From Thermodesulfobacteriota bacterium (GTDB lineage: Bacteria > Desulfobacterota_D > UBA1144 > Nemesobacterales > UBA2774): DNA of 64,000 nt. This document shows, one piece after another, positions 46,862-63,885 of the stretch. A program made the position numbers and the translations under genes. The stretch is taken from assembly GCA_965216785.1 (NCBI GenBank), contig OZ244197.1, positions 1,760,001 to 1,824,000 on the forward strand. The letters run 5' to 3'. The first letter of the stretch is position 1. The number at the start of each line of letters is the position of its first letter. The notes beneath the pieces were generated by a model. It was not told the DNA's origin. It saw nothing but the letters and a program-made list of their open reading frames with translations, and ran no database searches.

Positions 46862-46935
46862 AGGTTCTCCCGTTATTCACTTGTCCACAGAATAAACGCT
46901 GATGTGTAAGTGTCGAATATTATTGTAAAAAAGAG

Positions 46936-47009
46936 CGTCCCCGAGAGGATTCGAACCTCTGGCCTCAGGATTAGGAATCCTGCGCTCTATCCTGCTGAGC
47001 TACGGGGAC
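46936..47009 (-). tRNA. tRNA-Arg(CCT)
   Basis: Reverse complement GTCCCCGTAGCTCAGCAGGATAGAGCGCAGGATTCCTAATCCTGAGGCCAGAGGTTCGAATCCTCTCGGGGACG folds as a cloverleaf; anticodon CCT; CCA not encoded. Confidence 0.97.
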
Positions 47010-47019
47010 TGTTTAATGA

Positions 47020-47032: not shown

Positions 47033-48125
47033 TGAGCTTAATATTTCTATTGGTCTCGTCATCAGTGTCCAAATAGGTGACCGTTGGCGAGAATTGTAAG
47101 TGCTCAACAGCTTCCTTTTTGTGTTGGGGTGATGGGTGTATGTATCTTTTAGTAGTGCTTATATCTTTATGTCCCATCAGTTCTTGTATCGTAGCAATAT
47201 CTACACCAGACATTGATAGATTACTCCCGAAACTATGTCTTAGATCATGGAACCTTAAATGTGCTATCCCTGACCTTCTTAGAGCACCCCAGAAGGCCTT
47301 TTTTACCGTCTTGACTGGAATACCATTGGCTCCAGCAAAAAGGTGCTCACAATTGTTATTATTAATAACAGACTTTAGAGTCTTCATCAATAGGGAATTA
47401 ATCGGTACATGCCTAATATCTCCATTCTTGCTTTCTCTGACGAGTATATACCTGTCTCTAAGGTTTATGTCAGAAACCCTTAGATTAAGGATCTCAGACC
47501 TTCTTAACCCTGTATGTATGGCTATCATAAGGATAGGTTTTAGGAATTCAGAAGCTGCTGCATATAGTTTTGCGAACTCATCTATTGAGATCACTCGTAA
47601 TTGTTTAGGCTTTTCAGGAAATAATTTTACTTGAGCAACTGGATTGTTCGATATCATATTCCACTCAATTGCTTTTTTAAACATATGTTTCAGCATTGAA
47701 AGTTCTCTATTAATACTTGCCTTAGCAGGACTTTTACCATTTTTCATTATTTCCTTTTGCCGAGATGATTTATATTTTTCAACATGCCAGTTGGTAATTT
47801 GCTGGATTGTTCTTCCATTGAAATATCGCCTAAGATGTTTGGAGGATGTCATGTCTCTGTCATAAGAGTTTGGTCTTTTGTTCGCTTTTGAATATTCAAG
47901 ATATTGTGTAACCAACCTTTCAAATGGAGTTGGCTTGATAGCACTTTCTAATTTGAATTTACCTTGGGCCATTTCTGCTTTTCTTATAGACAAGGCTTTC
48001 TTAGCATCTTCACGATTAATTCTGGAAGGATCGACACCGGGGATTGAAACAACCTCTCGTTTCCTCTTCCCATTCGGCATATAATAATCTATGTACCATC
48101 TGTTACCTTTTCGATAATATCCCAT
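47022..48125 (-). CDS. int: Tyrosine recombinase/integrase (phage-integrase family)
   Basis: Arm-binding N-terminus WYIDYY..GKRKR, TGLRRSE, SKNG, FHDLRHSF, LMGHKDISTTKRY (R-K-H-R-H-Y). Confidence 0.96.
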   Translation of the reverse strand: MGYYRKGNRWYIDYYMPNGKRKREVVSIPGVDPSRINREDAKKALSIRKAEMAQGKFKLESAIKPTPFERLVTQYLEYSKANKRPNSYDRDMTSSKHLRRYFNGRTIQQITNWHVEKYKSSRQKEIMKNGKSPAKASINRELSMLKHMFKKAIEWNMISNNPVAQVKLFPEKPKQLRVISIDEFAKLYAAASEFLKPILMIAIHTGLRRSEILNLRVSDINLRDRYILVRESKNGDIRHVPINSLLMKTLKSVINNNNCEHLFAGANGIPVKTVKKAFWGALRRSGIAHLRFHDLRHSFGSNLSMSGVDIATIQELMGHKDISTTKRYIHPSPQHKKEAVEHLQFSPTVTYLDTDDETNRNIKLITP

Positions 48126-48408
48126 ACTGCTTTCTCCTCTTGAATTTTTTCTCTAATTCTTCAAGTGGATCTATTTCTTTTTTTTCCTTTCCTACATATA
48201 TACAGTGAGTTTTGTTTTTATAAGTGAAGTACGCATACCAGTACAAACCGTGACCCGAACCCCCTTCTCTACACTTACTACAGCCACATTTCGAGGGCTT
48301 CTGCTGATAAACAACCGCTGGGGGTAAAAGAGTTTCTATATGATTATGGAGCTGTCGAAGTTCATAAACACTAAGTTCCTTTAAAATAGGAGCAATCTTA
48401 TCTAACAT
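48103..48408 (-). CDS. DUF6788-like small Cys/His protein overlapping the integrase start
   Basis: KCGCSKC..G.GHGLYWYAY....KTHCIYVGK motif; overlaps int by 23 nt. Confidence 0.7.
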   Translation of the reverse strand: MLDKIAPILKELSVYELRQLHNHIETLLPPAVVYQQKPSKCGCSKCREGGSGHGLYWYAYFTYKNKTHCIYVGKEKKEIDPLEELEKKFKRRKQYGILSKR

Positions 48409-48542: not shown

Positions 48543-50825
48543 ATGATAGAAAAAGTTGTATTTATAAAAAATATAGGGCGTTTTATTAACTGCAATGCGT
48601 ATGGCGACATCCATTTTCGTAAATGTAATCTAGTTTTTGCAGAAAATGGTCGTGGAAAAACTTCTTTTTGTTCTATTTTACGTTCCCTAAGTACTGGTGA
48701 GTCATCTTTTATTCAGGGTCGAAGAACACTCGGAACAGAAGAATTACCTGAAGTCCATTTAAGACTTGATGGGCAGAATTTCATTTTCAGAAATAATGAG
48801 TGGAATAATACTGTTCCCCATATAATGATTTTTGATGATAGTTTCATAAATCAAAATGTTTACTCAGGTGAAAATGTAGATGTAGATCACCGCCAAAACT
48901 TATATGACATAATAATTGGAGAAAGAGGTAAAGAACTTGCATCTGAAATCCGTAATATTGACAGAGATGTGCGAGATAAGAATGGGCGATTAAGCGAGGT
49001 TAGATCGGAGATAAGAGCATTAATACCAGAAGGAAGAATTGGATTTGAGGCTTTTCTGGATTTACCTTCTGATGGTGAAGTTGATAAGCGTATTACAGAG
49101 AAAGATAGGGAATTAGAAGCAGTTAAACAGTCAGCCATATTACAAAGAAGTCCAGTTTTAAAAACTATCATAATACCCAATATGCCTGAGGGTTTCTTTC
49201 CATTTTTGGCTAAAAGTTTTGATGAGATTGCTGAGGATGCTGAAAAGAAGATAGCAAGCCATATCGAAACCCATAAGATGCAAGATAGTGGAAAGGAATG
49301 GTTATTCGAGGGCTACAAACATATAGAAAAAGATAAATGTCCATTTTGTGCACAGGATTTGTCAAATTCAGAACTTATAAAATCTTATACTAGTTTTTTC
49401 AGTGAAGCTTACAATAAACTCAAAGAAGAAATTAAAATCTTGGAAGAAAGAATTCTCGAGGACTTTGGAGAAGTCAGAATTGCATCGTTAGTAACTAGTT
49501 TAGATAAAAACAAAGCTGCACTTGAATTCTGGAGACGTTATTCTGACCTAAAGGAACCTGTTTTTTCTGATAGCGAGAATCTTAAAGACTACATTTCGCA
49601 GGTTAGGGACATTGCTCAAGAATTACTAATCCAAAAATCACAGACACCCATAGAAAAAATTGAGCCTGATCCTGAGCAAAATATGCATTTTACCAAACTA
49701 AGTAGTTATATAGAGGGGGTTGAGACCTATAATAAGGGAGTCACTGAGGCGAACTCAATCATCCAAGAGATGAAGGAAAAAACACGATCAAGAAATCTTC
49801 GTGATGTCGAAGCGGAAATGATTCAATTAAAGTCAGTGAAGAAACGTCATGAAAGTGAAGTTGCAACAATTTGTGAGAATTATCGCCGATTACTTACAGA
49901 AAAACGAGCTCTAGAAACTAGTAAAATAAGGACTAGGGCATTGTTAGATACGCATACAGACGAAGTAATTGAACAATACGAAAATGCTATTAACCGTTAT
50001 TTAGATTATTTTAATGCGGGGTTCCAAATAGCTAGAACTAATTACGACTATATGGGTGGAACGCCTAATGCACATTACAAGATTTTAATTAATAGGACTC
50101 ATGTTGATCCTGGTAACTCATCATCACCTATTAGTGAGCCTTCTTTTAGAAATACATTAAGTTCTGGTGATCGTAGTGCGCTTGCTTTAGCTTTCTTCTT
50201 AGCGCAATTGGAGAATAATCCTGACAAAGCACAGAAGATAGTCATTTTCGATGATCCATTCAATAGTCAGGACGATTTTAGAAAGGGGAACACCGCACAC
50301 CGTATCAGACAGTGCGCACGCGAATGTACTCAGGTAATAGTATTATCTCATGACAAGCATTTTTTAAAACATGTGTGGGATGAACTACCGAGGGAAGAGC
50401 GTAAATCTATCCAATTTTTCCGAGTTTCAGAGGATTGTACAGATATTGCAGAGTGGGATATTGACACTGCTGTTCAAGCACGGTTTAAAGCTGATATTAT
50501 TACCTTATTGAAATATTACGGTAGCAACGAAGGAGATTCGAGAGATGTTGTAACTAAAATACGACCAGTTTTAGAAGGTTTTTGCCGTAATCTCTATCCT
50601 ACGAAGTTTAGTGAAACTGATACATTAGGTGTGATCGTAGAGAAAATACAAGAAGAGGGTTCAGGTTTTCCTCTTCATTCTATCCATGAAGAATTAGAGG
50701 AGATAAATATTTACAGTCGTAGGTATCACCATAGTGATAATCCAGAGTTCGCTACTGAACCGATCAATGATGCAGAGTTGAAAGGATATATTAAAAGAAC
50801 TCTTGCTGTCACTGGATATTTTTAA
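48543..50825 (+). CDS. rloC: RloC-like AAA_13 (Rad50/SMC-type ABC ATPase + HEPN) anticodon nuclease / defence protein
   Basis: Walker A AENGRGKT, coiled coil with zinc hook CPFC, signature LSSGD, Walker B VIFDDP, VLSH, C-terminal IRPVLEGF and SRRYHH HEPN-like motifs. Confidence 0.75.
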   Translation: MIEKVVFIKNIGRFINCNAYGDIHFRKCNLVFAENGRGKTSFCSILRSLSTGESSFIQGRRTLGTEELPEVHLRLDGQNFIFRNNEWNNTVPHIMIFDDSFINQNVYSGENVDVDHRQNLYDIIIGERGKELASEIRNIDRDVRDKNGRLSEVRSEIRALIPEGRIGFEAFLDLPSDGEVDKRITEKDRELEAVKQSAILQRSPVLKTIIIPNMPEGFFPFLAKSFDEIAEDAEKKIASHIETHKMQDSGKEWLFEGYKHIEKDKCPFCAQDLSNSELIKSYTSFFSEAYNKLKEEIKILEERILEDFGEVRIASLVTSLDKNKAALEFWRRYSDLKEPVFSDSENLKDYISQVRDIAQELLIQKSQTPIEKIEPDPEQNMHFTKLSSYIEGVETYNKGVTEANSIIQEMKEKTRSRNLRDVEAEMIQLKSVKKRHESEVATICENYRRLLTEKRALETSKIRTRALLDTHTDEVIEQYENAINRYLDYFNAGFQIARTNYDYMGGTPNAHYKILINRTHVDPGNSSSPISEPSFRNTLSSGDRSALALAFFLAQLENNPDKAQKIVIFDDPFNSQDDFRKGNTAHRIRQCARECTQVIVLSHDKHFLKHVWDELPREERKSIQFFRVSEDCTDIAEWDIDTAVQARFKADIITLLKYYGSNEGDSRDVVTKIRPVLEGFCRNLYPTKFSETDTLGVIVEKIQEEGSGFPLHSIHEELEEINIYSRRYHHSDNPEFATEPINDAELKGYIKRTLAVTGYF

Positions 50826-50909
50826 AAATTGATAATTAAAACCAGTGAGACTTCTAATAATAGTAATTGGCTCATACCGATTAAAACACTCTCACAAGAA
50901 TGTTTGAAA

Positions 50910-50931
50910 AAATTCTTTCACCAGATGAAAG
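50910..50931 (+). repeat. Palindromic repeat, copy 1
   Basis: AAATTCTTTCA-CCAGA-TGAAAG(tttca). Confidence 0.9.
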
Positions 50932-51049
50932 TTTCAAGCTGGGTGATCAGAAGCTTGACCGAAATTTAGAAGATGATCTATCTCATGAAAGTGTAGTCTC
51001 AAACGCTACAAAAGTGTAAACTATGTTAACCGGAATTCCTATGAATCTT

Positions 51050-51670
51050 TTAGTTTCCAAAAATTATTTGAATTGCTTCTGTCGCAGAGTATGGACTTAA
51101 TCCAGTTTTTTCCCAAATCTCGGGATCGGCATCACGAGGCCATATAAGACTTGGTGTGATCTTCTTACTGGCTCCATTCAAAGGATAAGCTTTATCTATC
51201 AGTACAATCCAAATCAATTTTCGTTCAACACCATCAAAATTAGTTCTAGGATCATACACAAATACGCCATCACCTTTTGGATTGTTCATTGTCAAAAACT
51301 CTCTTCCCCCGACCTTTAATTGATTAGGTGCAATTGATTGTATTACAATTCCTCGAGCATAATGGTTGGGTTTAGAGATTGATAGTACTTGTGATTTATA
51401 TTTATAAGTCTCGGGAGATTTTTCTTTTTGGTATTCACGTATAGTTGCATAGCACCTGATATTAAAAAAAGTATCATCAAGATATATTTCTTTACATTCT
51501 TTTTCCATGCAAGATACATCTGGTCCACATTTTTCATAGATTTTTTCGACTTGTTCTTGAGACATTGAAAATTCTCTCTTCTCTATCTGATATTCATCTC
51601 CTAGTGTTTCCAGACAGTACACATTAAATATCAGTATGAATAAGATAAATCCTGTAATTGGTTTAGTCAT
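51050..51670 (-). CDS. Hypothetical exported protein
   Basis: 206 aa, N-terminal hydrophobic signal, AGGAGG SD, Cys-containing N-terminal half. Confidence 0.7.
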   Translation of the reverse strand: MTKPITGFILFILIFNVYCLETLGDEYQIEKREFSMSQEQVEKIYEKCGPDVSCMEKECKEIYLDDTFFNIRCYATIREYQKEKSPETYKYKSQVLSISKPNHYARGIVIQSIAPNQLKVGGREFLTMNNPKGDGVFVYDPRTNFDGVERKLIWIVLIDKAYPLNGASKKITPSLIWPRDADPEIWEKTGLSPYSATEAIQIIFGN

Positions 51671-51869
51671 TGGTTGTCCTCCTTTTATTTATCGAGAATC
51701 ATGTTTCCATAGCTACCATCATGCATATATTCATTTAGCTAGTTAAATATCCACCGGAATCTAACCAACTTTATAAGTCTTGTTTATAAAAGTCGCATTA
51801 TACTGATTATTGTTATGTATTCAATAGTCTATGGTTTTAGTCACGATTTGACCAGAAGATATTGCCTAT

Positions 51870-52118
51870 ATGGCAACTCGGATAAATAAGAAACTTGTCA
51901 CAGCATTTGCAAGAGCTTTAAAATCTATCCGTCTTGAAAAAGAGCTCACTCAGGAGCAAGTAGCATATGCTGCTAAAGTTCATCGCACATATATTGCTTT
52001 CCTAGAAGGCAGGAGAAAACAACCTTCTATTGATGCAGTATTTAAGATAGCAAATGGTTTAGACATTAAACCGAGTGAATTAATAAGGAGGGTAGAGACA
52101 TATTATTCTAAAAAATGA
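51870..52118 (+). CDS. XRE/Cro-C1 family HTH regulator
   Basis: LKSIRLEKELTQEQVA...VHRTYIAFLEGRRKQPSI. Confidence 0.9.
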   Translation: MATRINKKLVTAFARALKSIRLEKELTQEQVAYAAKVHRTYIAFLEGRRKQPSIDAVFKIANGLDIKPSELIRRVETYYSKK

Positions 52119-52144
52119 TGGGTTTCATAGATGTAATGTTGCCC

Positions 52145-52169
52145 TTCTTTCACCAGATGAAAGAATTTC
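52145..52169 (+). repeat. Palindromic repeat, copy 2
   Basis: TTCTTTCA-CCAGA-TGAAAGAATTTC; 52146-52169 is identical to 62987-63010. Confidence 0.92.
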
Positions 52170-52358
52170 CTAGTAGGGATGAGGTTTGAATGAGATTAAA
52201 GCCAGATATCTTCTCCGAAAATCACCCAGCTCCTACTTGATACAGATTCAAAATCCATCGGCTTTATTCAAATACCCTTACGATTCGCTCTCTCCAGCAT
52301 GTCACAGACAACGGAATTTTCGCTTAGGATGTGGGAAATGACAACAATAAGATCAACC

Positions 52359-52583
52359 GCATGCTCTTATAACATGATTTGATTGCGGCGTTTATAACCA
52401 AGGTCTCCTAATTCTTTCGGGAGGCTCGATAAAGAGGGGCTGATGAATTATCTGGCAATCCCTTTACACCTGAACGTGCTTACAGTGCTTCCGTTTGGCT
52501 ATTTTGATGAGAGCCTCGGGGGTGGAGATAAATTCAGGAGGAGTCCCGAAGAGGTGTTTCATTTAAATAGGTTCGGGGAGTGA
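52359..52583 (+). pseudogene. Nitroreductase-family C-terminal remnant
   Basis: Frame ending at 52583 reads ...LAIPLHLNVLTVLPFGYFDESLGGGDKFRRSPEEVFHLNRFGE*; upstream frameshifted pieces YNMI/IAA/YNQGL; no 5' half. Confidence 0.55.
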
Positions 52584-52713
52584 CTATAGGTGCCGAGGAG
52601 AATTTTTACCGGATGGCCTTTATTTACACCCGGCGAGTGTTTGAGTACGCATCTTTTATTTATACAAGCCACTCTGCTATACTTAAACCAGACTTGCTCA
52701 AAGGATGCAATAA

Positions 52714-53940
52714 TTGAATCCAATTGAAATAATTGTCGATATAGCCAGAGAAGTCGGGATTTCTGGTTTCTTGGATATAGCATTTATTACGATATTTATA
52801 TATGCAATCCTGGTGCTGTTTAAGCAGTCAAAAGCAAGATTTATTATTACAGGCATTCTTATATTAAGTGTAGTATATCTTATAGCCCGACAATTAAATC
52901 TAGCCTTAACTACATCTCTTCTCCAAGCCTTTTTCGCGGTCATCTTGCTTGCTCTTATTATTATCTTCCAGGAAGAAATAAGGCGCCTTTTTGAGCACAT
53001 TGCACTATGGAGCTTAAATCCTAAAGTAAGGTCAAATAAGACTACCAGTCCTGACAATAAGGAAACAGGAATTCTTGTTGATACTCTTTGTGATTTGGCT
53101 CAGCATAAAATTGGAGCGCTCATTGTAATCAAAGGTAAAACGGATTTATCTGGATATTTGGAGGGCGGTGAGATATTAGATGGGAGCATCAGCGAACCTC
53201 TTCTTAAGAGTTTATTTGACCCACATTCGACAGGCCATGATGGAGCAGTGGTAATAAGTAAAGGGAGAATAACATTTTTTGGCACTCACCTTCCCCTATC
53301 AAACAACTTTTCTCAACTTAAAAATAGAGGCACCCGTCACGCGGCTGCACTCGGAATATCGGAAGTTACCGACGCGCTTTGTCTTGTTGTTTCAGAAGAG
53401 AGGGGAACCATATCAATTGCCCATACCGGTGAACTAAAACAAATCGGCTCGGAACAACTAAACATTACTCTTGAGTCTTTTTATGAAGACATAAACCCGC
53501 CTGCTAAAAAAATGCCTCGTTTGGATTTCTCTCGGAATTATAAAGAGAAAATACTAGCATTACTCGCAGCTATAATTCTTTGGTTCGTATTCGTACATGA
53601 ATCAAGAACTGTTTACAGAAGTTTTGAGATACCAATTGAGCATACAACTCTTCCAGCCGGTTTCAAAGTTAAAGAAATAGATCCAGATAAAGTAAGCGTT
53701 ACTTTTTTAGGACCTAGAAGAGAGTTCTATTTCTTTAATGAGAACCAGGTCAGTTTAATACTGAAAATCCCAAATGCCGAACACGGTTTAGAACGCATTG
53801 ATATTTCCGAGTCCAACATTAAGTTTCCAAATGATCTATCTTTAGAAGATGTCGAGCCAAGAACAGTTACTGTACACATTGAAAAAATAGAAGCATTGAA
53901 TAAACAAGGGGATAATTTAAAAAACCAAGATCCTAGGTAG
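52714..53940 (+). CDS. Membrane diadenylate cyclase (CdaA/DisA_N) fused to a YbbR(CdaR)-like domain
   Basis: Three N-terminal TMs, IIFQEEIRR, GALIVI, HDGAVVI, GTRHAAALGISE, VVSEERG, then a TM and a P..V.VT..GPR YbbR-like domain. Confidence 0.88.
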   Translation: MNPIEIIVDIAREVGISGFLDIAFITIFIYAILVLFKQSKARFIITGILILSVVYLIARQLNLALTTSLLQAFFAVILLALIIIFQEEIRRLFEHIALWSLNPKVRSNKTTSPDNKETGILVDTLCDLAQHKIGALIVIKGKTDLSGYLEGGEILDGSISEPLLKSLFDPHSTGHDGAVVISKGRITFFGTHLPLSNNFSQLKNRGTRHAAALGISEVTDALCLVVSEERGTISIAHTGELKQIGSEQLNITLESFYEDINPPAKKMPRLDFSRNYKEKILALLAAIILWFVFVHESRTVYRSFEIPIEHTTLPAGFKVKEIDPDKVSVTFLGPRREFYFFNENQVSLILKIPNAEHGLERIDISESNIKFPNDLSLEDVEPRTVTVHIEKIEALNKQGDNLKNQDPR

Positions 53941-53954
53941 GGGAGGACACACCT

Positions 53955-55268
53955 ATGGAAACAACTACACCACTTTTGCCCTATGTGCAAAAATTCTTTG
54001 AATACGATCCTTTGACTGCAACCCACGCACTTGAAACTATGGATGAGGAGGAGGCAATCAAGATACTCACCATTCTTCCGGCTTCTATGTCCTCAAGTAT
54101 CTTTCGAAGATTGCCCACCGAACTAGCTGCGTCGCTGCTTGAAAAGGTCCCGCCCGAGACATTTATAGAAATTGCGGAAAAAATGGAGCCCCAGCAGGGC
54201 GCTACAATACTCATGCACATAACTGATGAAATAAGAACCAGAATGCTGACACACTTGCCGGATAAGACCAAGATGGCAATACAAGAGATACTGACTTATC
54301 CGAAGGGAAGTGTGGCTAGTATTATGACCACTAAATACGTAGCATTCCATAAAGATATTAGAATTTCAGATGTAGTTGAAAACATCCGTCAAAGAGCTCA
54401 TTCCAAAGCTCCGCCAGCGAGTTATGTATATGTTATAGACAATGAAAATCACCTGATTGGTGTCCTCAATATGCGTGATCTCATAATTGCAGATTCCGAT
54501 TCAAAGCTTGAATCAATAATGATAAAAAATCCGTATTGTATAAACGCTTTTACAGAGAGGGAGGTTGCGGCTAATGAGCTCGCCGACCGAAAATATTTTG
54601 CAGCTCCCGTAGTCGATAATGAAAACCACCTTTTGGGCATAGTAAAAGCCGATCAATTAATCAGCCAAGCTCAAGAAGACGCAAGTGCAGACCTTCAGAA
54701 AATGTTCGGAGTATCTCCAAGTGAGCATGTATTCTCATCGATTAAATTTTCTCTTACTAAACGACTTCCCTGGCTTCATATTAACTTGGTTACCGCTTTT
54801 ATGGCCGGGTCGGTTATTGCTATATTTGAGGGGATCATTGCTAAGATTACTGTTTTAGCCATATTTCTCCCTATAATTGCTGGCCAGGGCGGTAACGCTG
54901 GTTCCCAGTCATTGGCTGTAGTGATGAGGGGGCTTGTAATGAGGGAAGTTTCACCAAGAGAGACAAAGCAATTGGTGATGAAAGAGGCTAAACTCGGTCT
55001 TATAAATGGCGTAGTAATAGGATTTGTTACTGCGCTTATTGCTTGGATGTGGAAAGGTAATCCATACCTTGGACTCGTGATTGGACTTGCTATGATAGTG
55101 AACTTAGTGGCCGCAGGTGTTTCAGGAGCAATTATTCCCCTTACTCTCAAAGCATTCGGACAAGACCCCGCTCAGTCTTCAGCTATCTTACTCACCACTG
55201 TGACCGATATTATAGGATTCTTTTCATTTCTCGGGTTTGCTATGATATTCCAGAGTTTATTAATATAG
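53955..55268 (+). CDS. mgtE: Magnesium transporter MgtE
   Basis: MgtE_N, CBS pair, RLPWL, GQGGNAGSQ, DPAQSS, TTVTDIIG. Confidence 0.95.
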   Translation: METTTPLLPYVQKFFEYDPLTATHALETMDEEEAIKILTILPASMSSSIFRRLPTELAASLLEKVPPETFIEIAEKMEPQQGATILMHITDEIRTRMLTHLPDKTKMAIQEILTYPKGSVASIMTTKYVAFHKDIRISDVVENIRQRAHSKAPPASYVYVIDNENHLIGVLNMRDLIIADSDSKLESIMIKNPYCINAFTEREVAANELADRKYFAAPVVDNENHLLGIVKADQLISQAQEDASADLQKMFGVSPSEHVFSSIKFSLTKRLPWLHINLVTAFMAGSVIAIFEGIIAKITVLAIFLPIIAGQGGNAGSQSLAVVMRGLVMREVSPRETKQLVMKEAKLGLINGVVIGFVTALIAWMWKGNPYLGLVIGLAMIVNLVAAGVSGAIIPLTLKAFGQDPAQSSAILLTTVTDIIGFFSFLGFAMIFQSLLI

Positions 55269-55319
55269 CGTTGACCGATAAACTAACAAATTAGTTCGCT
55301 CTGCTGAGATTGCGTTCTA

Positions 55320-56342
55320 TTAACTATTCGGATTTTTCTTTTTAGCCAACTCCTGCATGTCTTCGTGTATATCTGATTCATCAACTATTTCTTCTCCGAT
55401 TAAAGACTCTATTACATCTTCTAAGCTGACTACTCCGATAAATCTGTTATTTCCATCCCTGACACAAAAGAGGTGGCGGCGAGTATCTATAAATTTATCC
55501 AGAAGCTCGTGTAAAGGCATCCCTCCATGAACAAAGTCTGGTGATACCATCAAATTGTTAATCTGCACATCGCTTTTTCCCTTAAGTAAAGCAAAATCAA
55601 TATCACGTCTATTAACTATTCCTATTATATTATTTTTGTCATTTTCGCCATACACCGGCATTCTACTGAAAATCCAGTTTTCAGAATCGATATCGATATC
55701 CTTGATAGCTATATTTCCCGGCAAACTGTAAACAACGGAACGAGGAGTCATAATGTCGTGAACAATAGACCTGTCAAGGAGCAATGCATTTATTACCATG
55801 CGGGCTTCATGAGACATTATGGCACGACTATGACGACCAAGTAATGCTAAGCTAATTATATCCTCTTCTGTAGGGAAATTTATGTGACTCTCTTTTCCCC
55901 AGACTCTTGTTATAACGACAGTAATTTTTACGAAGGGCCAGAGCGCTTTAACAAAAAAGGTAATAACACCAGCCAACCGGGGTGCGATTGAGCTTGCAAA
56001 AGTCACTCCTAATGATTTAGGGAGTATTTCACTCAAAAAAAGAACGGCTCCTGTGAATACCCCCGAAAATATACCAAGCCACATATCACCATAGTGTTTG
56101 GCGATTAATCCGGCTGACCATGTTGCCCCTATTATATTGATAGCGGTATTAAGAGTGAGGATTGCTGCAATCGGCTCATCAATTTTATCCCGCAGCTTAG
56201 CAAGCTTAACGCCGCCCGGATCACCACTTCGTTTTAAGGATTCGATGCGGCCCCTCGGTATTGCATATAGAGCTGCCTCCATAAGCGAACAAAAAAAATA
56301 ACCCAGGAGTGTAACCCCTACTATCACGGCTATAGCAAACAT
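55320..56342 (-). CDS. CNNM/DUF21-CBS (CorB/CorC-like) protein
   Basis: FFCSLMEAA, AAILTLNT, SEILPK, IMTPR, FSRMPVY, GVVSLEDVIE.LIGEEIVDE. Confidence 0.92.
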   Translation of the reverse strand: MFAIAVIVGVTLLGYFFCSLMEAALYAIPRGRIESLKRSGDPGGVKLAKLRDKIDEPIAAILTLNTAINIIGATWSAGLIAKHYGDMWLGIFSGVFTGAVLFLSEILPKSLGVTFASSIAPRLAGVITFFVKALWPFVKITVVITRVWGKESHINFPTEEDIISLALLGRHSRAIMSHEARMVINALLLDRSIVHDIMTPRSVVYSLPGNIAIKDIDIDSENWIFSRMPVYGENDKNNIIGIVNRRDIDFALLKGKSDVQINNLMVSPDFVHGGMPLHELLDKFIDTRRHLFCVRDGNNRFIGVVSLEDVIESLIGEEIVDESDIHEDMQELAKKKNPNS

Positions 56343-56378
56343 AAGCTCCTTTCCTTATAACACTTAGAGATATGATTA

Positions 56379-57401
56379 TTAACCCTTAGGACCTTTCCTT
56401 TTTGCTAATTCTTGCATGTCTTCATGAATATCGAGCTCGTCCACTATCTCTTCGCCTATTAGGGACTCGATAATGTCCTCCAAAGTGACAATACCCATAT
56501 ACTCATCCTTTGAGTTCTTCACACAGAATAGATGTCTTCTTGTTAAGATAAAACGCTTAAGCAGCTCGTTCAGATGCATATCCTCGGGCACGATGTCAGG
56601 AGGTATCATAACACTCCTTAATGTTTTGTTACCCTCACCTCTCATTAGAGCCATATAGACATCGCTTCTTAAAGCCACGCCTACTATATTGTCAGGTTGC
56701 CCTTCTGTATAAACAGGAATTCTGCTGTAATGCCAGTAGTCCGAATCCAGGTCTATATTCCCCAGTATTGTGCTGTCCGGCATCTCCATTACTACGGATT
56801 TGGGTGTGTAGATCTCCTTAACCCTCAACTCGTCCAGCCTGAGTGCGTTTGTTACAATTTCCGCCTCCTCGGGCAGTATTCCGCCACCATGATGCGTAAG
56901 CTCGGCAAGGCTCTTTAAATCATCTTCCGTTGGGAAGTTCAGGTGAGAATTCTTGCCCCACAGGCTTGTAATAAACACGCTCAGTTTTACAAAAGGCCAT
57001 AGTATTTTGATGAGAAAATCAATCAGTATGGACAAGCGTGGAGCGAGGGCGTTTGCATAAGTTACTCCCAGGGACTTTGGAATAATTTCGCTGAATATCA
57101 AAACTCCCCCTGTAAATAGGCCGGAAAAAACTCCGAGCCAAGTATCCCCGTAATACCTGGCAACCAGAGAGCCCGCAATGGACGCCCCGATTACGTTTAC
57201 AGCAGTGTTGAGAGTTAGTATAGCTGCTATAGGCTGATCAATATTATCTCTTAGTCTGGCCAGCCTTATCCCGCCCGGGTCACCTTCCCGCTTCAAAGAC
57301 TCGATCCTGCTCCGGGGAATGGAATATATTGCAGCTTCCATAAGCGAGCAGAAAAACGATCCCAATAAGCTGATTCCTGTTATTATTGCAATAGCGTACA
57401 T
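56379..57401 (-). CDS. CNNM/DUF21-CBS (CorB/CorC-like) protein, tandem paralogue
   Basis: Same motifs and same length (340 aa) as the neighbouring gene. Confidence 0.92.
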   Translation of the reverse strand: MYAIAIITGISLLGSFFCSLMEAAIYSIPRSRIESLKREGDPGGIRLARLRDNIDQPIAAILTLNTAVNVIGASIAGSLVARYYGDTWLGVFSGLFTGGVLIFSEIIPKSLGVTYANALAPRLSILIDFLIKILWPFVKLSVFITSLWGKNSHLNFPTEDDLKSLAELTHHGGGILPEEAEIVTNALRLDELRVKEIYTPKSVVMEMPDSTILGNIDLDSDYWHYSRIPVYTEGQPDNIVGVALRSDVYMALMRGEGNKTLRSVMIPPDIVPEDMHLNELLKRFILTRRHLFCVKNSKDEYMGIVTLEDIIESLIGEEIVDELDIHEDMQELAKRKGPKG

Positions 57402-57439
57402 AGATCAATTCCTTCCCTTTAGGCAACTAAGTGTAGCAC

Positions 57440-58396
57440 TCAGTTATCGGCTGTGTCCTCTATACCGACATTGATGAGAGCGTCTCCCCTATTTACAATC
57501 GGTAGACTTCTGATACCGATTATATAACCGTCCGTGCTAGTTCTTATTTTATGTTCAGTCTCGCCAAAGGGGTCGGTAATGCTCGCGATGATTTGGCTTT
57601 TCTTGACTTTCTCACCATATTCTACAAAAGCTCTATAAATTCCCGAGTTCCTTGCACGTATCCATGAAGTACTTCTAATCTCTACAGAGCTCTTTCGTTT
57701 TTGTGGATTTACTTTCATCATTTTTAAATGCTTCATGAGCCGCTTGATTCCCTCCATCCCTTCCTTAATTGCAAGCTCATCGAAGCGGAGTGATTCCCCG
57801 CCTTCGAAAACAAGAATAGTTTTCCCCTCTTTATGCGCCGATTTTCTCAATGAATCGTCTCTTAGTTTAGAATTTATTATAAAAGGTGGAGCGAAGGCAC
57901 GGGCCAGAGTTAAATTGTCCGGCGCATCAAACGTACATCTCACCTGTGGATAATTATTATTTGCCCCTCCAGTGTGCAGATCGACTCCATAATCAATTAC
58001 AGGCATTATTTTACTCATCAAAGTATGAGCTACTCGTGAAGCGAGTGAGCCGGTTTTTGTACCCGGAAAACTCCTGTTAAGATCCCTGCCGTCCGGAAGA
58101 TACCGGGACTTGTTTAAAAAGCCATAAACATTAACGATGGGCACAGCGACTACCATTCCTGCGGATGGTATTACTGACTGGTTAACTATCAAACGTCTGA
58201 TTGTTTCAATACCATTTAGCTCATCTCCATGTATACCTGCCATAATAAGAAGACTGGGCCCTTCCTTTTTACCTCTGAAAACAAATACAGGCAAGTCTAT
58301 CATTGTATGCGTCGGCAGTTTTGCGACGTTCAAGTTTATTTGAGCGTTCTGCCCAGGTGCTATTTCTTCACCATTTATTACTATGGTTTCTGGCAT
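57440..58396 (-). CDS. Succinylglutamate desuccinylase/aspartoacylase-family M14 peptidase
   Basis: AGIHGDELNG, RDLNRSFPG, VDLHTG, FEGGE. Confidence 0.92.
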   Translation of the reverse strand: MPETIVINGEEIAPGQNAQINLNVAKLPTHTMIDLPVFVFRGKKEGPSLLIMAGIHGDELNGIETIRRLIVNQSVIPSAGMVVAVPIVNVYGFLNKSRYLPDGRDLNRSFPGTKTGSLASRVAHTLMSKIMPVIDYGVDLHTGGANNNYPQVRCTFDAPDNLTLARAFAPPFIINSKLRDDSLRKSAHKEGKTILVFEGGESLRFDELAIKEGMEGIKRLMKHLKMMKVNPQKRKSSVEIRSTSWIRARNSGIYRAFVEYGEKVKKSQIIASITDPFGETEHKIRTSTDGYIIGIRSLPIVNRGDALINVGIEDTADN

Positions 58397-59305
58397 TTAT
58401 GATTTTACTCTATCTTTTATTAGTCTTTTGCGGTGAGCGTTTTCTTCTACAAACTCAATGATTTTTGATGCAACATCAATACCACTGGCTTTTTCAATAC
58501 CCTCAAGACCAGGGGATGAATTGACCTCCATAATCTTGGGGCCCGTACTGGATTGCAGCATGTCTACCCCGGCAACGTTAAGCCCGAGTAGCTTAGCTGC
58601 TTTAATAGCGGTCGAGCGTTCGCTTCTGCTAAGTTTGATTTCATTAGCGCTTCCACCACGGTGTATGTTTGAGCGGAACTCCCCTTCAGCGCCCTGTCTT
58701 TTCATAGCCCCTACGACTTTCCCACCTACAACGAACGCCCTTATGTCAGCTCCCTTAGATTCTTTTATAAACTCCTGAATGAGGATGTTAGCCTGGATAC
58801 CATAAAAGGCTTCCAAAACGGATTTTGCAGCTTTTTTGGTTTCTGTAAGTACGACTCCGATACCCTGTGTGCCTTGAAGGAGCTTTATTACTAGTGGAGC
58901 TCCCCCAACTTCCTCTATCAGGTGGTTTATATCGTCAGGGTCCGATGCAAAAGCGGTAACCGGCATTCCGAGTCCCGCGCGTGAAAGTATTTGCATACTG
59001 CGAAGTTTATCTCTTGACCTCACAATCGCCTGTGACTCGTTTACCGGGAACACATGCATCATTTCAAACTGTCTGACAACAGCAGTACCATAGAAGGTTC
59101 TTGAAGCGCCAATCCTCGGAATAACAGCATCGATCCCTGTGAGTTTTTCCCCATCGATATATATCTCTGGATTCTTTTTCTCTATCACCATGTAGCATTT
59201 CAGAAAATCTAACACTTGAACATCGTGCCCTCTCTCCTGAGCAGCCTCTACGAGTCTTTTAGTAGAATAAAGATTCTCGTTTCTCGACAATATGGCTATC
59301 TTCAT
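58397..59305 (-). CDS. rimK: Ribosomal protein S6--L-glutamate ligase (ATP-grasp)
   Basis: [53 protein letters not shown]. Confidence 0.96.
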
Positions 59306-59766
59306 TTTTGTCTCCCTTTGTTTTTATGCTTATATGATAGATTCGATTTAGTTACATCGACAACAAACCCCTCTTTCAATAATTTTCTGCCTAATAGTAT
59401 GGGTTTTCCCATTTTTGAGCGGTCACTTAAAGAAATCTCTATATCATAATTTTCCCCGAAAAGCCTTATGGAAGTCTTAATTATGCATCTTTTCTCCGAT
59501 ATACCAAACGAACTTTTGACATTCCTTATTGCGTGTAGCTTTACTCTGAACCTCTTTTCGTCATAATCTGGATGTGAGGGATCGAGAAGATTGAAAGTTA
59601 CATATTTTTGCCCGTCCTTCTCTTTTACTTTGATATTGTGGCAGTGTATTGACGATGTGTAGGCACCTGTGTCTATTTTTGCGTCAATGTCATAAAGCCT
59701 CATTCTTGGAAAGTCAACTTTATCTCTTCTGCCAATTAAGCGTTTTTCTGTTCTATTTTTAGACAT
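59302..59766 (-). CDS. RimB-like retropepsin-type protease (RimK-associated)
   Basis: [31 protein letters not shown]; overlaps the rimK start. Confidence 0.88.
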
Positions 59767-59825
59767 CTATATGCTTGATATTATTACACAGATATATCAT
59801 TATGTAACTAGAGGACGGTGCATTA

Positions 59826-61622
59826 ATGTTTGATTTTGTGACACAGCTGGACGATTTTTTCCTAGCACTATATGTTCATCTAACTTCCAATATAAAAGAC
59901 GAGTTAGCAGCTGCCGCAGTTCTTCTCGTAGTTTTTGTGGTAACGCTTCTTGTGCATAAAAAAGCAATCGGGTTTCTCCTACGCACCCAATGGAAGTTCA
60001 AGCCGTATGTACTGTTTCTCATAGCTCTCGTCTTTCCGCTTATTTATATTCTTATCGTAATTGGGGCGGCTCCACATTTGAAAGGTGGATTGACTCTAAT
60101 ATTATTCTCCTCTCTTGCTTATTTCTATCTTGGCTTTTACCTAATAAAGAACCTGCTTGAACCGCTCAGGATAAACAGCGTACCATGGAAGATTATTTCA
60201 TATGTATTATTATTATTGACCGTAATTTTCAACGCATTAGTTGATCTAAACACGCAGTTCTTTAAAAGCCCCGATTTACAAGAAGTATTCTCCATATTTT
60301 TCAAAGTCTCTGCAATACTGCTTATTTACATGTTTTTACTCAGAGCACTTAGGTTTTTAACTGAATTTCTTCCAGAGCGGCAAATAGTTGCGAAACATAT
60401 TATAGAGAGCCTCATAAGCGTAGTGTCGGTTCTATATATTATCCTCGCAGCGCTCTGGCTCTTTAAATTAGTCGGGTTCGCATCATCGCTATTTGTCGGC
60501 GGCGTGGCTGTATTTATTGCCGTAGTGGGCTATGGGCTTCTCAAATCTTTTGCTGCTAGTTATCTGGGGCCGAAAACAGATGGAAATCCTTCATATAGTG
60601 CGTTGCTAAAGAGTATTGAATCTTTCCTCATTCTGCTGCTGATCTATGTTCTATACATTATATTCAAACTCTCTTTTAACCTGGAGCAGGTTCATCACTT
60701 CCTTTCCGAGGCGTATCTAGTAAATACAGGCGTGATTGTTATATCTTTATTCTCTCTAGTTTCTGGGCTCTTCATGTTCTTCTTTTTACTTTCAATGATG
60801 GGGATCTTAAAACAAATAGTTTATTTCTACAACATGAAGCTCGGCAGGGAGCTCGAAGCGGCTTCGCTCAGGTCTTTGGTATCTAATCTCGGCCTGTTGA
60901 TCGTAATAATGATTGCCCTTTCCGGGATCGGCCTTACATGGAAAGCATTACTCCCCATAGCGGGTGCTCTGGGAATAGGTATTGGGATTGGGCTCCAAAC
61001 TATTATGAATAACTATCTTAGCGGCTTCATACTCTTATTCAGTAAGCGCCTTAAGATTGGAGACATTATAGAATTTGACGGTAATGCGGGTAGAGCTATT
61101 GGGAATACATTAGAGACCATATATGGTCGTGTCGTAAGTATTGATACATTTTCAAGCGTAGTAACGACTACTGACGGCATCGAAATAGTTGTCCCCAACT
61201 CACAATTTATAGATAAGCAGATGGTAAATTATTCACTTTCTGACTATACAATCAGGGTTAGGATTCCTTTCGGTGTCTCCTATTCTGCAGATCCCAATAC
61301 AGTAAAAGATATACTTTTAAAAGTAGCCAATGAAAATACTCAAATACTCAGGTCTCCCGAGCCCGGCCTTTGGTTTACGGAATATGCCGATAGCGCCCTG
61401 GTGTTCTATCTGCTTTGCTGGGTTAATATCAAGGACATTTGGAAAATAAAACCTGTCATTAGCGATATTTACTTCAAGAGCTGGTATGAGCTGAAAAAAG
61501 CCGGTGTAGTCATACCATTCCCGCAAAGAGATGTGTGGTTTAAAAATAATCTTAAGGTCGAGATAGAGAAAGATCTCGGAGAGCACTTTCAAAAGAAACC
61601 GGGCGACTGGGGAGGTGAATAA
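59826..61622 (+). CDS. Mechanosensitive channel, MscS family (multi-TM)
   Basis: GALGIGIGIGLQ, N.LSG.ILL, GDII, VVPNS, FGVSY, IPFPQRDV. Confidence 0.92.
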   Translation: MFDFVTQLDDFFLALYVHLTSNIKDELAAAAVLLVVFVVTLLVHKKAIGFLLRTQWKFKPYVLFLIALVFPLIYILIVIGAAPHLKGGLTLILFSSLAYFYLGFYLIKNLLEPLRINSVPWKIISYVLLLLTVIFNALVDLNTQFFKSPDLQEVFSIFFKVSAILLIYMFLLRALRFLTEFLPERQIVAKHIIESLISVVSVLYIILAALWLFKLVGFASSLFVGGVAVFIAVVGYGLLKSFAASYLGPKTDGNPSYSALLKSIESFLILLLIYVLYIIFKLSFNLEQVHHFLSEAYLVNTGVIVISLFSLVSGLFMFFFLLSMMGILKQIVYFYNMKLGRELEAASLRSLVSNLGLLIVIMIALSGIGLTWKALLPIAGALGIGIGIGLQTIMNNYLSGFILLFSKRLKIGDIIEFDGNAGRAIGNTLETIYGRVVSIDTFSSVVTTTDGIEIVVPNSQFIDKQMVNYSLSDYTIRVRIPFGVSYSADPNTVKDILLKVANENTQILRSPEPGLWFTEYADSALVFYLLCWVNIKDIWKIKPVISDIYFKSWYELKKAGVVIPFPQRDVWFKNNLKVEIEKDLGEHFQKKPGDWGGE

Positions 61623-62063
61623 TGTCTTCGAGGCTAGTAAAAAAGACATCAGCCAAAAAGGCCTACGACCGGGCTCACTAATTTACATTGGCGAACAAAA
61701 AGTCGATAAAGTCAGAATCAGGGTAATAGATTACGATGAGAAGAACCTAATTGAGTATGAATATGAAAGTATTGAAGAAACCTTTTCATTCAAAGATAAC
61801 AATTCTGTTTCATGGATAAATATAGACGGTCTACACGATGTGGAAGTTCTCAGAAAATTAGGCGAAAATTTCGGAATTCATAATCTCGTTCTTGAAGATA
61901 TTTTAAACACTGACTTCCCTGACTTTTATAGCCGGCCTTTACGGAATGAATTTTGATAATATGCCGGAGCTACATAAGAATTGGGGCTACCCTATAGTTA
62001 TTATCGTTATAGTAGTTGTAGCAGTAGGAATGATATATTATTTTAAGAAAAAAATGGTTTTAG
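61615..62063 (+). pseudogene. corA: corA pseudogene with a large internal deletion
   Basis: N-terminus [34 protein letters not shown] is fused out of frame at ~61915 to the C-terminus [22 protein letters not shown]. Confidence 0.88.
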
Positions 62064-62114
62064 TTGTTGTTTCTTAAATCGATAGTTATCGGTCAAGGAC
62101 TGAATGGGGACACT

Positions 62115-62960
62115 ATGAAAATTGCTGTAACAGCAGCGAGTGGGCATTTGGGTGCCGAGATAGTCAAGGCAACTGTTCAGCTTGTTGGTAAAGGTAACGT
62201 TGTCGGGCTTGCACGCACGCCTTCCAAAGCCGAACATCTTGGTATTGAAATTCGGAGGGGTGATTACGGTTCCAAGAAAGATTTAATGAAAACGCTGCGA
62301 CACGTGGACACCCTCTTGTTGGTATCCGGTATGGATGATCCTATAAAGCGCATTGATCAACACCGTAATGTAATTTATGCTGCCAAGTATGCTGGTGTGA
62401 AGAAGATTGTCTATACCAGCATTCAAGGTGCTGAGAAGCATACGGCTTTTTCTCCAATAATTCAAAGCAATCGCCAAACTGAGTGTGATTTACATCTCTG
62501 CGGATTAGATTGGGTAATTGGGCGCAATGGAATTTATATTGAATCAGACATTGAGTGTATAGCAACCTACAAGGAGAAGGGAGAAATCGCAAATTGTGCT
62601 GGCGATGGAAGATGTGGTTACACCACCCGGCCCGAATTAGCGTATGCCTATGCCCGAATCTTGACCGAATCCAAGCACAATGGTAGAACATATAATCTGC
62701 ATGGAGAACCGATTACACAGTATCAGCTAGCAGCTTATCTAAACATGACGTTTGGCACCAACTTGACATATAGACCTATGACAGTAGAAGAATATCGCCA
62801 AGATCGTATTACGGAATTGGGTGAATCAATGGGTAATATTATAACTGGCATCTATCAGGGAATTCGCGAAGGAGCATTGTTTAACATCAGCCATTATACT
62901 GACGCAACTTCCAGATCCCATCAAAGTTGGGAAAATTATTTCAATGCTCTGAAAATATAA
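62115..62960 (+). CDS. NmrA/QOR2-like atypical SDR oxidoreductase
   Basis: MKIAVTAASGHLG, QHRNVI.AAK.AGVKKIVYTS, GRNGIY. Confidence 0.88.
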   Translation: MKIAVTAASGHLGAEIVKATVQLVGKGNVVGLARTPSKAEHLGIEIRRGDYGSKKDLMKTLRHVDTLLLVSGMDDPIKRIDQHRNVIYAAKYAGVKKIVYTSIQGAEKHTAFSPIIQSNRQTECDLHLCGLDWVIGRNGIYIESDIECIATYKEKGEIANCAGDGRCGYTTRPELAYAYARILTESKHNGRTYNLHGEPITQYQLAAYLNMTFGTNLTYRPMTVEEYRQDRITELGESMGNIITGIYQGIREGALFNISHYTDATSRSHQSWENYFNALKI

Positions 62961-62986
62961 GAATAATACTTTATATTTTTGTGTAC

Positions 62987-63010
62987 TCTTTCACCAGATG
63001 AAAGAATTTC
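62987..63010 (+). repeat. Palindromic repeat, copy 3
   Basis: TCTTTCA-CCAGA-TGAAAGAATTTC, 24-bp perfect direct repeat of copy 2. Confidence 0.92.
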
Positions 63011-63132
63011 AGATGTATCCGCTCTTATTTCTTAGTAATTCGTATTTTATATAGACTGTGAACTTTGTGAGCCTATGTATAGTTATACAGGAACATCATT
63101 CAAGCTAGATATTATGTAAAATGCTTGCAACA

Positions 63133-63164
63133 CAAAACGAGTATAGGGATCGCCACTTATACTC
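63133..63164 (-). terminator. Probable intrinsic terminator of the xis-rep transcript
   Basis: Minus strand GAGTATAAG-N8-CCTATACTC stem followed by GTTTTG. Confidence 0.45.
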
Positions 63165-63188: not shown

Positions 63189-63674
63189 TTATTTTCGGGT
63201 TCTATTAACTTCAGGGAAAACTAATTGCCCCTTATTAGTTTTGGGTGAGTAAAAATCAATCTCACTACCAAATCTAATGCTCTTAGTCAAATAAAATTTC
63301 GCTCCTAATTCAGGATCGTAATCATAAATACGAGCAAAACCATTTATGCTTTCATCTTCGTTTAAATTGAAGTTTTTTTCCCATAAATACATGTATTTCA
63401 GCTTATCTAATTTCCATACATCTCCGCCCATTAAAAAATGAAAGTGAATGACATTCCTTTTTTGATTTTCTAATACATAAACCCATGTTACGCCTAAATT
63501 CTTTTCTCTATATCTTCTGCCGTGAAGTTGCTGGTTTATTTTTTTTATGAAAGTGAAGAATCTTCTCTTAGCTATTTCAGGGTGAATTTGTTGCTGAAAT
63601 GTAAGTGTTCCATACCAATGGAAGGGTTCTAGCATAGATATTAGCTCAATCCAACCTAACTCTATAGGTCGCAA
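63189..63674 (-). CDS. HUH-superfamily rolling-circle replication/relaxase-like endonuclease (true start may be ~24 nt upstream)
   Basis: Motif I GTLTF, motif II ENQKRNVIHFHFL, motif III FYLTK. Confidence 0.8.
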   Translation of the reverse strand: MRPIELGWIELISMLEPFHWYGTLTFQQQIHPEIAKRRFFTFIKKINQQLHGRRYREKNLGVTWVYVLENQKRNVIHFHFLMGGDVWKLDKLKYMYLWEKNFNLNEDESINGFARIYDYDPELGAKFYLTKSIRFGSEIDFYSPKTNKGQLVFPEVNRTRK

Positions 63675-63693
63675 ATATGACTCATTAATATAA

Positions 63694-63885
63694 TTAATTA
63701 TAGCTCACCTCCACTCTATGTTTTTCAAGGAAATTCTCGAATTCAGATTGGTTGATTAGTATCTTTTTTTGGATTCGGTAGTGGGCAATCATTTTGTAAC
63801 GAATCCAATAATAAATCGTTGTTACATTGATTCCATATAATGCTGATAAGTCTTTGGGGGAGAGTTTCTTATCTTTGCTCTTCAT
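63694..63885 (-). CDS. Excisionase-like HTH (HTH_17/MerR-like) protein
   Basis: 63 aa, LSPKDLSALYGINVTTIYYWIR...I..YRI.KKILI. Confidence 0.82.
   Translation of the reverse strand: MKSKDKKLSPKDLSALYGINVTTIYYWIRYKMIAHYRIQKKILINQSEFENFLEKHRVEVSYN

Follow-up and report, generated by a model that had tools for sequence, protein, structure and literature searches.

The window analysed here, a stretch of 64,000 nucleotides from a Thermodesulfobacteriota bacterium (assembly GCA_965216785.1, contig OZ244197.1, positions 1,760,001 to 1,824,000; genome G000 below), contains an 18.2-kb island in which three copies of one short palindromic site stand among the cargo genes. The island is bounded by a repeat of 48 bp that corresponds to the 5' half of tRNA-Arg(CCT) (46968-47015 and 65190-65237), and the sister genome G002 has an empty site with flanks that are 85% and 89% identical. 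Its genes include a tyrosine integrase, an excisionase-like gene and a rolling-circle initiator of the HUH type (Rep), with the cargo lying between an AAA_13 ATPase gene and rep (Table 1). An Rfam scan of the island matched the tRNA alone. The original prediction held that the palindromes are direct repeats derived from recombination, and this is supported by the changes in base composition, the related site in another genome and the restricted occurrence of the motif described below.

To locate the site, the window was searched with the 17-mer CTTTCACCAGATGAAAG, which occurred exactly at 50915, 52147 and 62988, each time on the plus strand. Allowing up to three mismatches on both strands gave six matches, compared with a mean of 0.20 in shuffled sequence (six were reached in 0/100 shuffles). 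The three copies share one orientation and an identical centre and lie within 12.1 kb. They were also the only exact occurrences in the whole 3,118,197-bp genome, so that the genome-wide scatter named beforehand as fatal to the prediction was not seen; weaker matches at 406249, 1895029 and 1165460 (21-22/29) fell inside open reading frames (ORFs) and were dropped. As noted beforehand, copies 2 and 3 are identical over 24 bp (52146/62987). The identical stretch is 19 bp long for copies 1 and 2 and 18 bp for copies 1 and 3, and no other exact repeat between 47016 and 65189 is as long as these three. The flanks of the copies are unrelated, which rules out that they are remnants of one gene.

The arms of the copies complement each other. 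Perfect arms in copies 1, 2 and 3 are 6, 8 and 7 bp long. Joining the left of copy 1 to the right of copy 2 or 3 gave perfect 11-bp arms around a 5-bp centre, which confirmed the predicted reconstruction and is equivalent to 10-bp arms around 7 bp (10-7-10). The core site of a tyrosine recombinase has inverted arms of ~11-13 bp and a centre of 6-8 bp. The reconstructed site (10-7-10) has this geometry, as does a near-whole site in the related genome G018, whereas the copies in the window keep the shorter perfect arms. Each copy had been described as carrying one truncated arm; this does not quite fit copy 1, whose right arm is a variant with a 2-bp deletion that still pairs with its own left flank.

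Table 1 Features of the island, its cargo and its palindromic sites, numbered from the first letter of the window.
Feature	Position	Strand	Remarks
tRNA-Arg(CCT), island target	46935..47009	-	attachment (att) repeat 46968-47015; second att beyond the window, G000:C1:1825190-1825237
Island tyrosine integrase, 367 amino acids	47022..48125	-	arm-type-like repeat at 47065, also conserved near the opposite island end (65055)
DUF6788-like protein	48103..48408	-	under the Pfam cut-off
AAA_13 ATPase	48543..50825	+	matches candidate defence model PDC-S06
Site copy 1	50909..50937	+	full left arm, core, right arm with 2-bp deletion; gap between convergent AAA_13 and exported-protein genes
Segment A, 1.2 kb	50932..52144		GC 0.343; 206-residue protein without Pfam family (51050-51670, -), divergent from XRE regulator (51870-52118, +)
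Site copy 2	52145..52169	+	left arm of 8 bp, core, complete right arm; flanked by XRE gene and YspA-like remnant
3' remnant of small gene	52233..52399	-	74% identity to G000:99081-99247
Half-site TAATTCTTTC	52409..52418	+	left arm alone; ends where nitroreductase remnant starts
Nitroreductase-like remnant, 5'-truncated	52417..52579	+	83% identity to G000:1011587 and to G002; label from homologue's sequence, without family scan
DAC, MgtE, two CNNM, AstE/AspA, RimK, zinc protease, MscS, internally deleted CorA-like gene	52714..62062		synteny of the block kept in several relatives
NmrA-like NAD(P)H-binding protein	62064..62960	+	119 other genomes without match at E<=1e-30
Site copy 3	62987..63010	+	left arm of 7 bp, core, complete right arm; gap separating convergent NmrA-like and rep genes
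Candidate Rep nick motif CTTGAAT	63098..63104	-	putative, not unique in island; resembles a motif that three related rep genes have downstream; 90 bp beyond copy 3
HUH rolling-circle initiator (Rep)	63189..63674	-	REP_ORF2-G2P family
HTH_17 excisionase-like protein	63694..63885	-	

Base composition sets apart the DNA between copies 2 and 3 (segment B, 10.8 kb). A two-change-point fit of the guanine-plus-cytosine (GC) content that was blind to the sites placed its best boundaries at 52,176 and 62,936, adjoining copies 2 and 3, with a GC content of 0.411 inside and 0.33-0.36 outside. A pair drawn at random from the 20 gene gaps would be the copy 2 and copy 3 gaps in 1 of 190 cases (p about 0.005). 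Since copies 2 and 3 bound a block of different base composition, the copies are likely to be recombination scars. The GC steps beside these copies agree with the 10.8-kb insertion that had been proposed, except that segment B is a mosaic with a half-site inside and not a single unit. Segments A and B, which are bounded by the 19- and 24-bp repeats, encode no recombinase; no integrase or relaxase remnant of a decayed integrative conjugative or mobilizable element (ICE or IME) was recognised in them and no parent element was found.

This half-site lies 3' of copy 2, where a 167-bp remnant of a small gene, which we take to be YspA/SLOG-like, is followed by nine unexplained bases, the half-site and a 5'-truncated nitroreductase-like gene. 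Homology to two intact nitroreductase genes starts at 52417, the end of the half-site, and this end corresponds to the arm/centre boundary of a site with a 7-bp centre. The last six bases of the half-site, TCTTTC, are the first six of copy 3, and the nitroreductase-to-NmrA block thus has TCTTTC at both ends. Joined to copy 3, the half-site restored 10-bp arms, and for this reason the missing left part of copy 3 may sit 10.6 kb away, at the half-site. The 9-mer of the half-site has a frequency of 9e-6 per position and 57 occurrences in the genome, and its coincidence with the junction was spotted post hoc. The junction at 52,400 was also considered as a secondary att site of the tRNA type and rejected, as its 12/17 match was equalled or exceeded elsewhere in the island.

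We further searched for the site in 120 genomes of the phylum, including G000 (about 250 Mb for the chance estimate), and matches were found in G000 and G018 only. G018 has a single site with 22/23 matching bases and a near-full left arm, for which the chance expectation was 0.001-0.003. The partner sites of the window have the same centre in the same orientation, from which the G018 site differs by one base. It is located in a low-GC island at the same tRNA-Arg, whose neighbouring integrase is 30% identical to that of the studied island, at the end of synteny with a metal-resistance cluster and 25 bp from a scar resembling the end of an insertion sequence (IS). An empty or single site in relatives had been anticipated: the near-full single site of G018 agrees with this, but no array of sites was present in any of the related islands examined. 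Several relatives also have the DAC-to-CorA block, with differing neighbourhoods. The three closest relatives of Rep are 64-74% identical.

Taken from the arrangement of these sequences, our reading, held with moderate confidence, is that a single tyrosine-recombinase-type site, used for cargo accretion, left all three copies and the half copy behind as scars, and that the recombinase responsible was probably not the island's own. An ancestral site with ~11-bp inverted arms and a 7-bp centre would have lain between the convergent AAA_13 and rep genes, and it was likely used more than once for cargo intake. Segments bringing their own core copy would have entered this site and left direct repeats: the entry of segment A would have produced copies 1 and 2, followed by a small segment with the YspA-like remnant after copy 2. 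The 10.6-kb nitroreductase-to-NmrA block would then likely have entered the last site at the boundary of arm and centre; the left arm of that site would have stayed at 52409-52418 and the remainder at copy 3, with TCTTTC on each side. Alternatively, all 10.8 kb between copies 2 and 3 may have arrived in a single insertion; the GC fit cannot discriminate between these histories, being nearly equal whether its left edge is set to copy 2 or to the half-site. As they encode no recombinase, the segments would depend on the island for any further movement, in the manner of cis-mobilizable elements (CIMEs).

Several observations weigh against this accretion reading. With regard to the catalyst, no full site was found beside the 15 tyrosine-recombinase loci of G000 (best arm match within 2.5 kb, 17/22), and the core was absent from 30 recombinase loci of four genomes, though the enzyme may act in trans or have been lost. 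The dif-like sequence of G000 near 2,550,770 has neither arm in common with the site. With regard to composition, the range of the right change-point (62,736-62,956) ends 30 bp before copy 3, a fit placed at the sites scores 3.3 log units under the best fit, and GC steps can arise from gene ends alone. Segment A has a backbone-like GC content, which gives its boundaries no compositional support, and the site was not found near close XRE homologues elsewhere; because of both, it is only the arm geometry that suggests copy 1 as a cargo edge, and of the proposed 1.2-kb insertion the bounding repeats stand whilst independent evidence of its boundaries is lacking. The placement of all three copies in convergent gaps is not predicted by a model of scars. 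Furthermore, the 7-bp centre is nearly symmetric (in G018, symmetric except for the middle base), and a near-symmetric centre is unusual for a directional recombination site.

The distribution of the site adds to these points. The G018 copy is the only one in that genome and overlaps an ATPase reading frame. The site was absent from 80 metagenome loci, which were chosen by related integrases and not by the motif and were mostly short, the closest long one being interrupted just upstream of the integrase. It was likewise absent from the related island loci of GTDB relatives, most of them short or partial, and from the ends of the cargo block in 14 regions of relatives. An 18-mer scan of GTDB genomes gave 62 loci with a single match each, 53 of which fell in ORFs of at least 150 residues, the core also reading as a common peptide. 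These were not taken as homologues, because chance predicts 5-26 matches and the excess fits the common peptide. Viral contigs gave 0 matches to two strict patterns of the site and 117 to a spacer-free pattern (best 23/29, no array); they contained no relatives of Rep and distant relatives of the integrase only. The spacer-free pattern returned six other single matches in the 120 genomes, fewer than the reversed control, and BLAST of plasmids and phages returned only hits with E of 1 or more. The open-access literature searched contained no description of the site. Finally, contigs from four runs (at most two samples of one study, possibly the source of the genome) run across the island with neither joints nor branches at the repeats. 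The lack of an excision junction in the assembled contigs of that one study does not show that excision products are absent, because contigs drop rare forms.

Among the other explanations, the one that survives best, which we regard as possible but unlikely, is that the palindrome binds a protein or serves at 3' ends (as an operator, a roadblock, an RNA stabiliser or a repetitive extragenic palindrome (REP)-like element), was copied locally into convergent gaps and marks junctions without being the crossover site. The convergent placement and the nearly symmetric centre keep it alive. Only two of the three sites had been placed between convergent genes, but all three copies are, as the YspA-like remnant that follows copy 2 is on the minus strand, and only 4 of the 20 gene gaps are of this kind. 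The G018 copy is a 10-1-10 palindrome, a form that resembles a dimer operator, and other identical palindromes occur at many places in the genome, one of them in 24 copies. The studied palindrome, in contrast, is not dispersed, being confined to three copies in one island and one orientation, and it forms weak AT-rich hairpins (RNA z-scores of -0.5 to -1.7), none of which was called a terminator. The genome-wide dispersal of a REP and the stable GC-rich stem with U tract of an intrinsic terminator are thus both missing, and rep has a hairpin of its own at 63139-63164. Such an element would also leave unexplained the complementary arm losses and the half-site at the truncation junction.

It is improbable that the Rep protein of the island made the repeats, the palindrome being its nick or termination site and rolling-circle strand transfer joining foreign DNA to it. 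The HUH and tyrosine motifs of Rep look intact, copy 3 lies 180 bp from the 3' end of rep, and a one-sided junction such as the half-site would suit the transfer of a single strand. On its other strand the pC194 origin has TCTTTC six bases before TGA, and shares TCTTTC-N6-TGA with the site (PMC5037232). The Rep protein had been put forward as a possible catalyst in the original prediction. However, the motif CTCTTGAAT, conserved downstream of three related rep genes, matched 63098-63104 (11/16) and not the palindromes, which is weak evidence as three other island positions tie with this match and the comparison used DNA of distant Rep relatives only (35-38%). The palindrome was absent beside the four other rep loci examined, and G018 had no rep match.

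That the repeats are scars which stem from DDE transposition, or from microhomology repair at the hairpin, is more improbable again. Arms that end in CA and start with TG around a 5-bp duplication resemble abutted transposon tips, IS-end scars are abundant in this family of islands (including the one near the G018 site), and the corA gene has an internal deletion. Against this, the arms share just 6-13 bp, no element with such ends was found elsewhere in the genome, the length of the shared stretches varies (19, 24 and 6 bp), and the same 5 bp would have to be targeted repeatedly.

The least probable origin, a very unlikely one, is that the tRNA integrase of the island built the array by using the palindrome as a relaxed secondary core: although this is the island's sole recombinase, accompanied by an excisionase-like gene, and the G018 site belongs to an island that occupies the same tRNA, the earlier proposal that it was the catalyst conflicts with its use of an att repeat that starts at the anticodon arm of the tRNA, to whose core the repeats match at 7/17 only, with an arm-type repeat confined to the two island ends, with the 30% identity of the G018 integrase and with the lack of the site at loci whose integrases are 75-77% identical.

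We compared the array with known systems. In its working it seems most like the accretion of CIMEs, and also like pdif modules, whilst belonging to neither class, as the site is neither the island att nor dif. CIMEs and tandem accretion in streptococci (PMC5704250, PMC7563491) likewise involve cargo segments of 1.2-13 kb that lack a recombinase, have short direct repeats and are carried by an integrative element. Their repeats, however, are the att sites found where a host target gene has its 3' end, and they are shared with an adjoining element whose integrase acts on them, whereas a non-tRNA palindrome makes up the repeats studied here, which lie mid-island and differ from the island att, both in the tRNA core match and in the restriction of arm-type repeats to the island ends. 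The pdif/xrs modules of Acinetobacter plasmids (PMC11705084) are similar in that short two-armed sites bound accessory genes and the recombinase acts from elsewhere. They differ in that pdif sites are similar to the dif of their host and often stand in inverted orientation, whilst the site here is unlike the dif-like sequence of G000 and directly repeated. The pdif study reports no excision even between directly repeated sites, which calls for caution with the present array (PMC11705084).

The array shares with integrons its row of segments with directly repeated, hairpin-forming sites (PMC8876359), and it had been called integron-like. This comparison failed on the integrase, the attI/attC core and the form of the cassettes. 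Unlike integrons, it has no IntI, attI or GTTRRRY core, and its segments are multi-gene, divergent and mosaic and number only two or three (PMC8876359). The island integrase scored 85 bits over 66 residues against an integron integrase model with a cut-off of 265, and the GTTRRRY core as defined in PMC8876359 was not present in the sites as read, with no covariance-model search for attC made. In place of single, promoterless, co-oriented cassettes, there is a divergent pair in segment A and a multi-operon mosaic in segment B. Strand-biased circularizing integrative elements (SE/GInt; PMC10214605) provide a parallel in that tyrosine-recombinase events leave a 6-bp one-sided footprint, comparable to the TCTTTC at both ends of the 10.6-kb block; the four genes of the intA-CDS2-intB-CDS4 core and the 13-19-bp terminal inverted repeats of these elements were not seen in the block, and the only integrase lies outside the segments (PMC10214605).

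The case is likely a variant of known island build-up and not a proven new integron. It is quite doubtful that it represents a dedicated gene-capture system, in which a trans-acting recombinase would cut at the arm/centre boundary, tolerate non-matching partners and load chromosomal blocks of several genes into integrative elements of the rolling-circle type, at convergent gaps where they do no harm, with the half-site as a fossil and the G018 site as an empty platform. If such a recombinase exists, the result would be a new site family and a new capture route in a poorly studied phylum; if not, the island is a tidy example of ordinary accretion. Its reach is small so far, covering two genomes and no catalyst found. 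Even so, the pickup of cargo in the interior of small integrative elements, away from their own att, is mostly unrecorded, and the seams here are legible to the base, giving a defined 29-bp substrate and a predicted cut position.

The cargo and the ends of the island showed further features. Going by gene names, the 52714-62062 block would be a module for cyclic-di-AMP, magnesium and osmotic functions; its CorA-like gene (61615-62062) has an internal deletion of ~630 bp and a frameshift relative to relatives. The C-terminal 100 residues of the protein at 51050-51670 have 279 relatives at E<=0.001, without a Pfam or PHROG family. A GTGTCC direct-repeat motif is conserved at both island ends (47065-47082; G000:C1:1825055) and in related elements, and these repeats are likely the arm sites of the integrase.

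Separately, a tyrosine recombinase of 208-217 residues (83-88% conserved) recurs in islands, with a palindromic site ~100 bp upstream (G000:C1:870935-871561, 1163412-1164038 and 1289416-1290057; G004:C5:236306; G018:C15 and C18; L089:19984). Extra copies of its palindrome occur at 876734, 1152567 and 1291979 of G000, and the palindromes at 876734 and 871658 form a direct repeat that flanks 5 kb of exported-protein genes. As its catalyst is visible, this recombinase with its palindrome is the better candidate for a cassette system; having a different palindrome of its own, it was ruled out as the catalyst of the studied site. A third recombinase of Xer size lies at G000:C1:1318854-1319723, and G002, G018 and G021 have counterparts that are close to it in length and score.

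Finally, tRNA-Arg(CCT) is common to two integrase families (46935-47015 of the window; L086-L089 and L274), one of which restores its 5' half (as in the studied island) and the other its 3' half. Several loci have both families, one per side. A conserved non-coding element of ~95 bp, not found in the studied island, lies downstream of replication-type genes in several islands (G000:C1:1214473-1214570 and 893660-893737; G018:C3:19912-20009; L070:529-621) and is a possible origin element.

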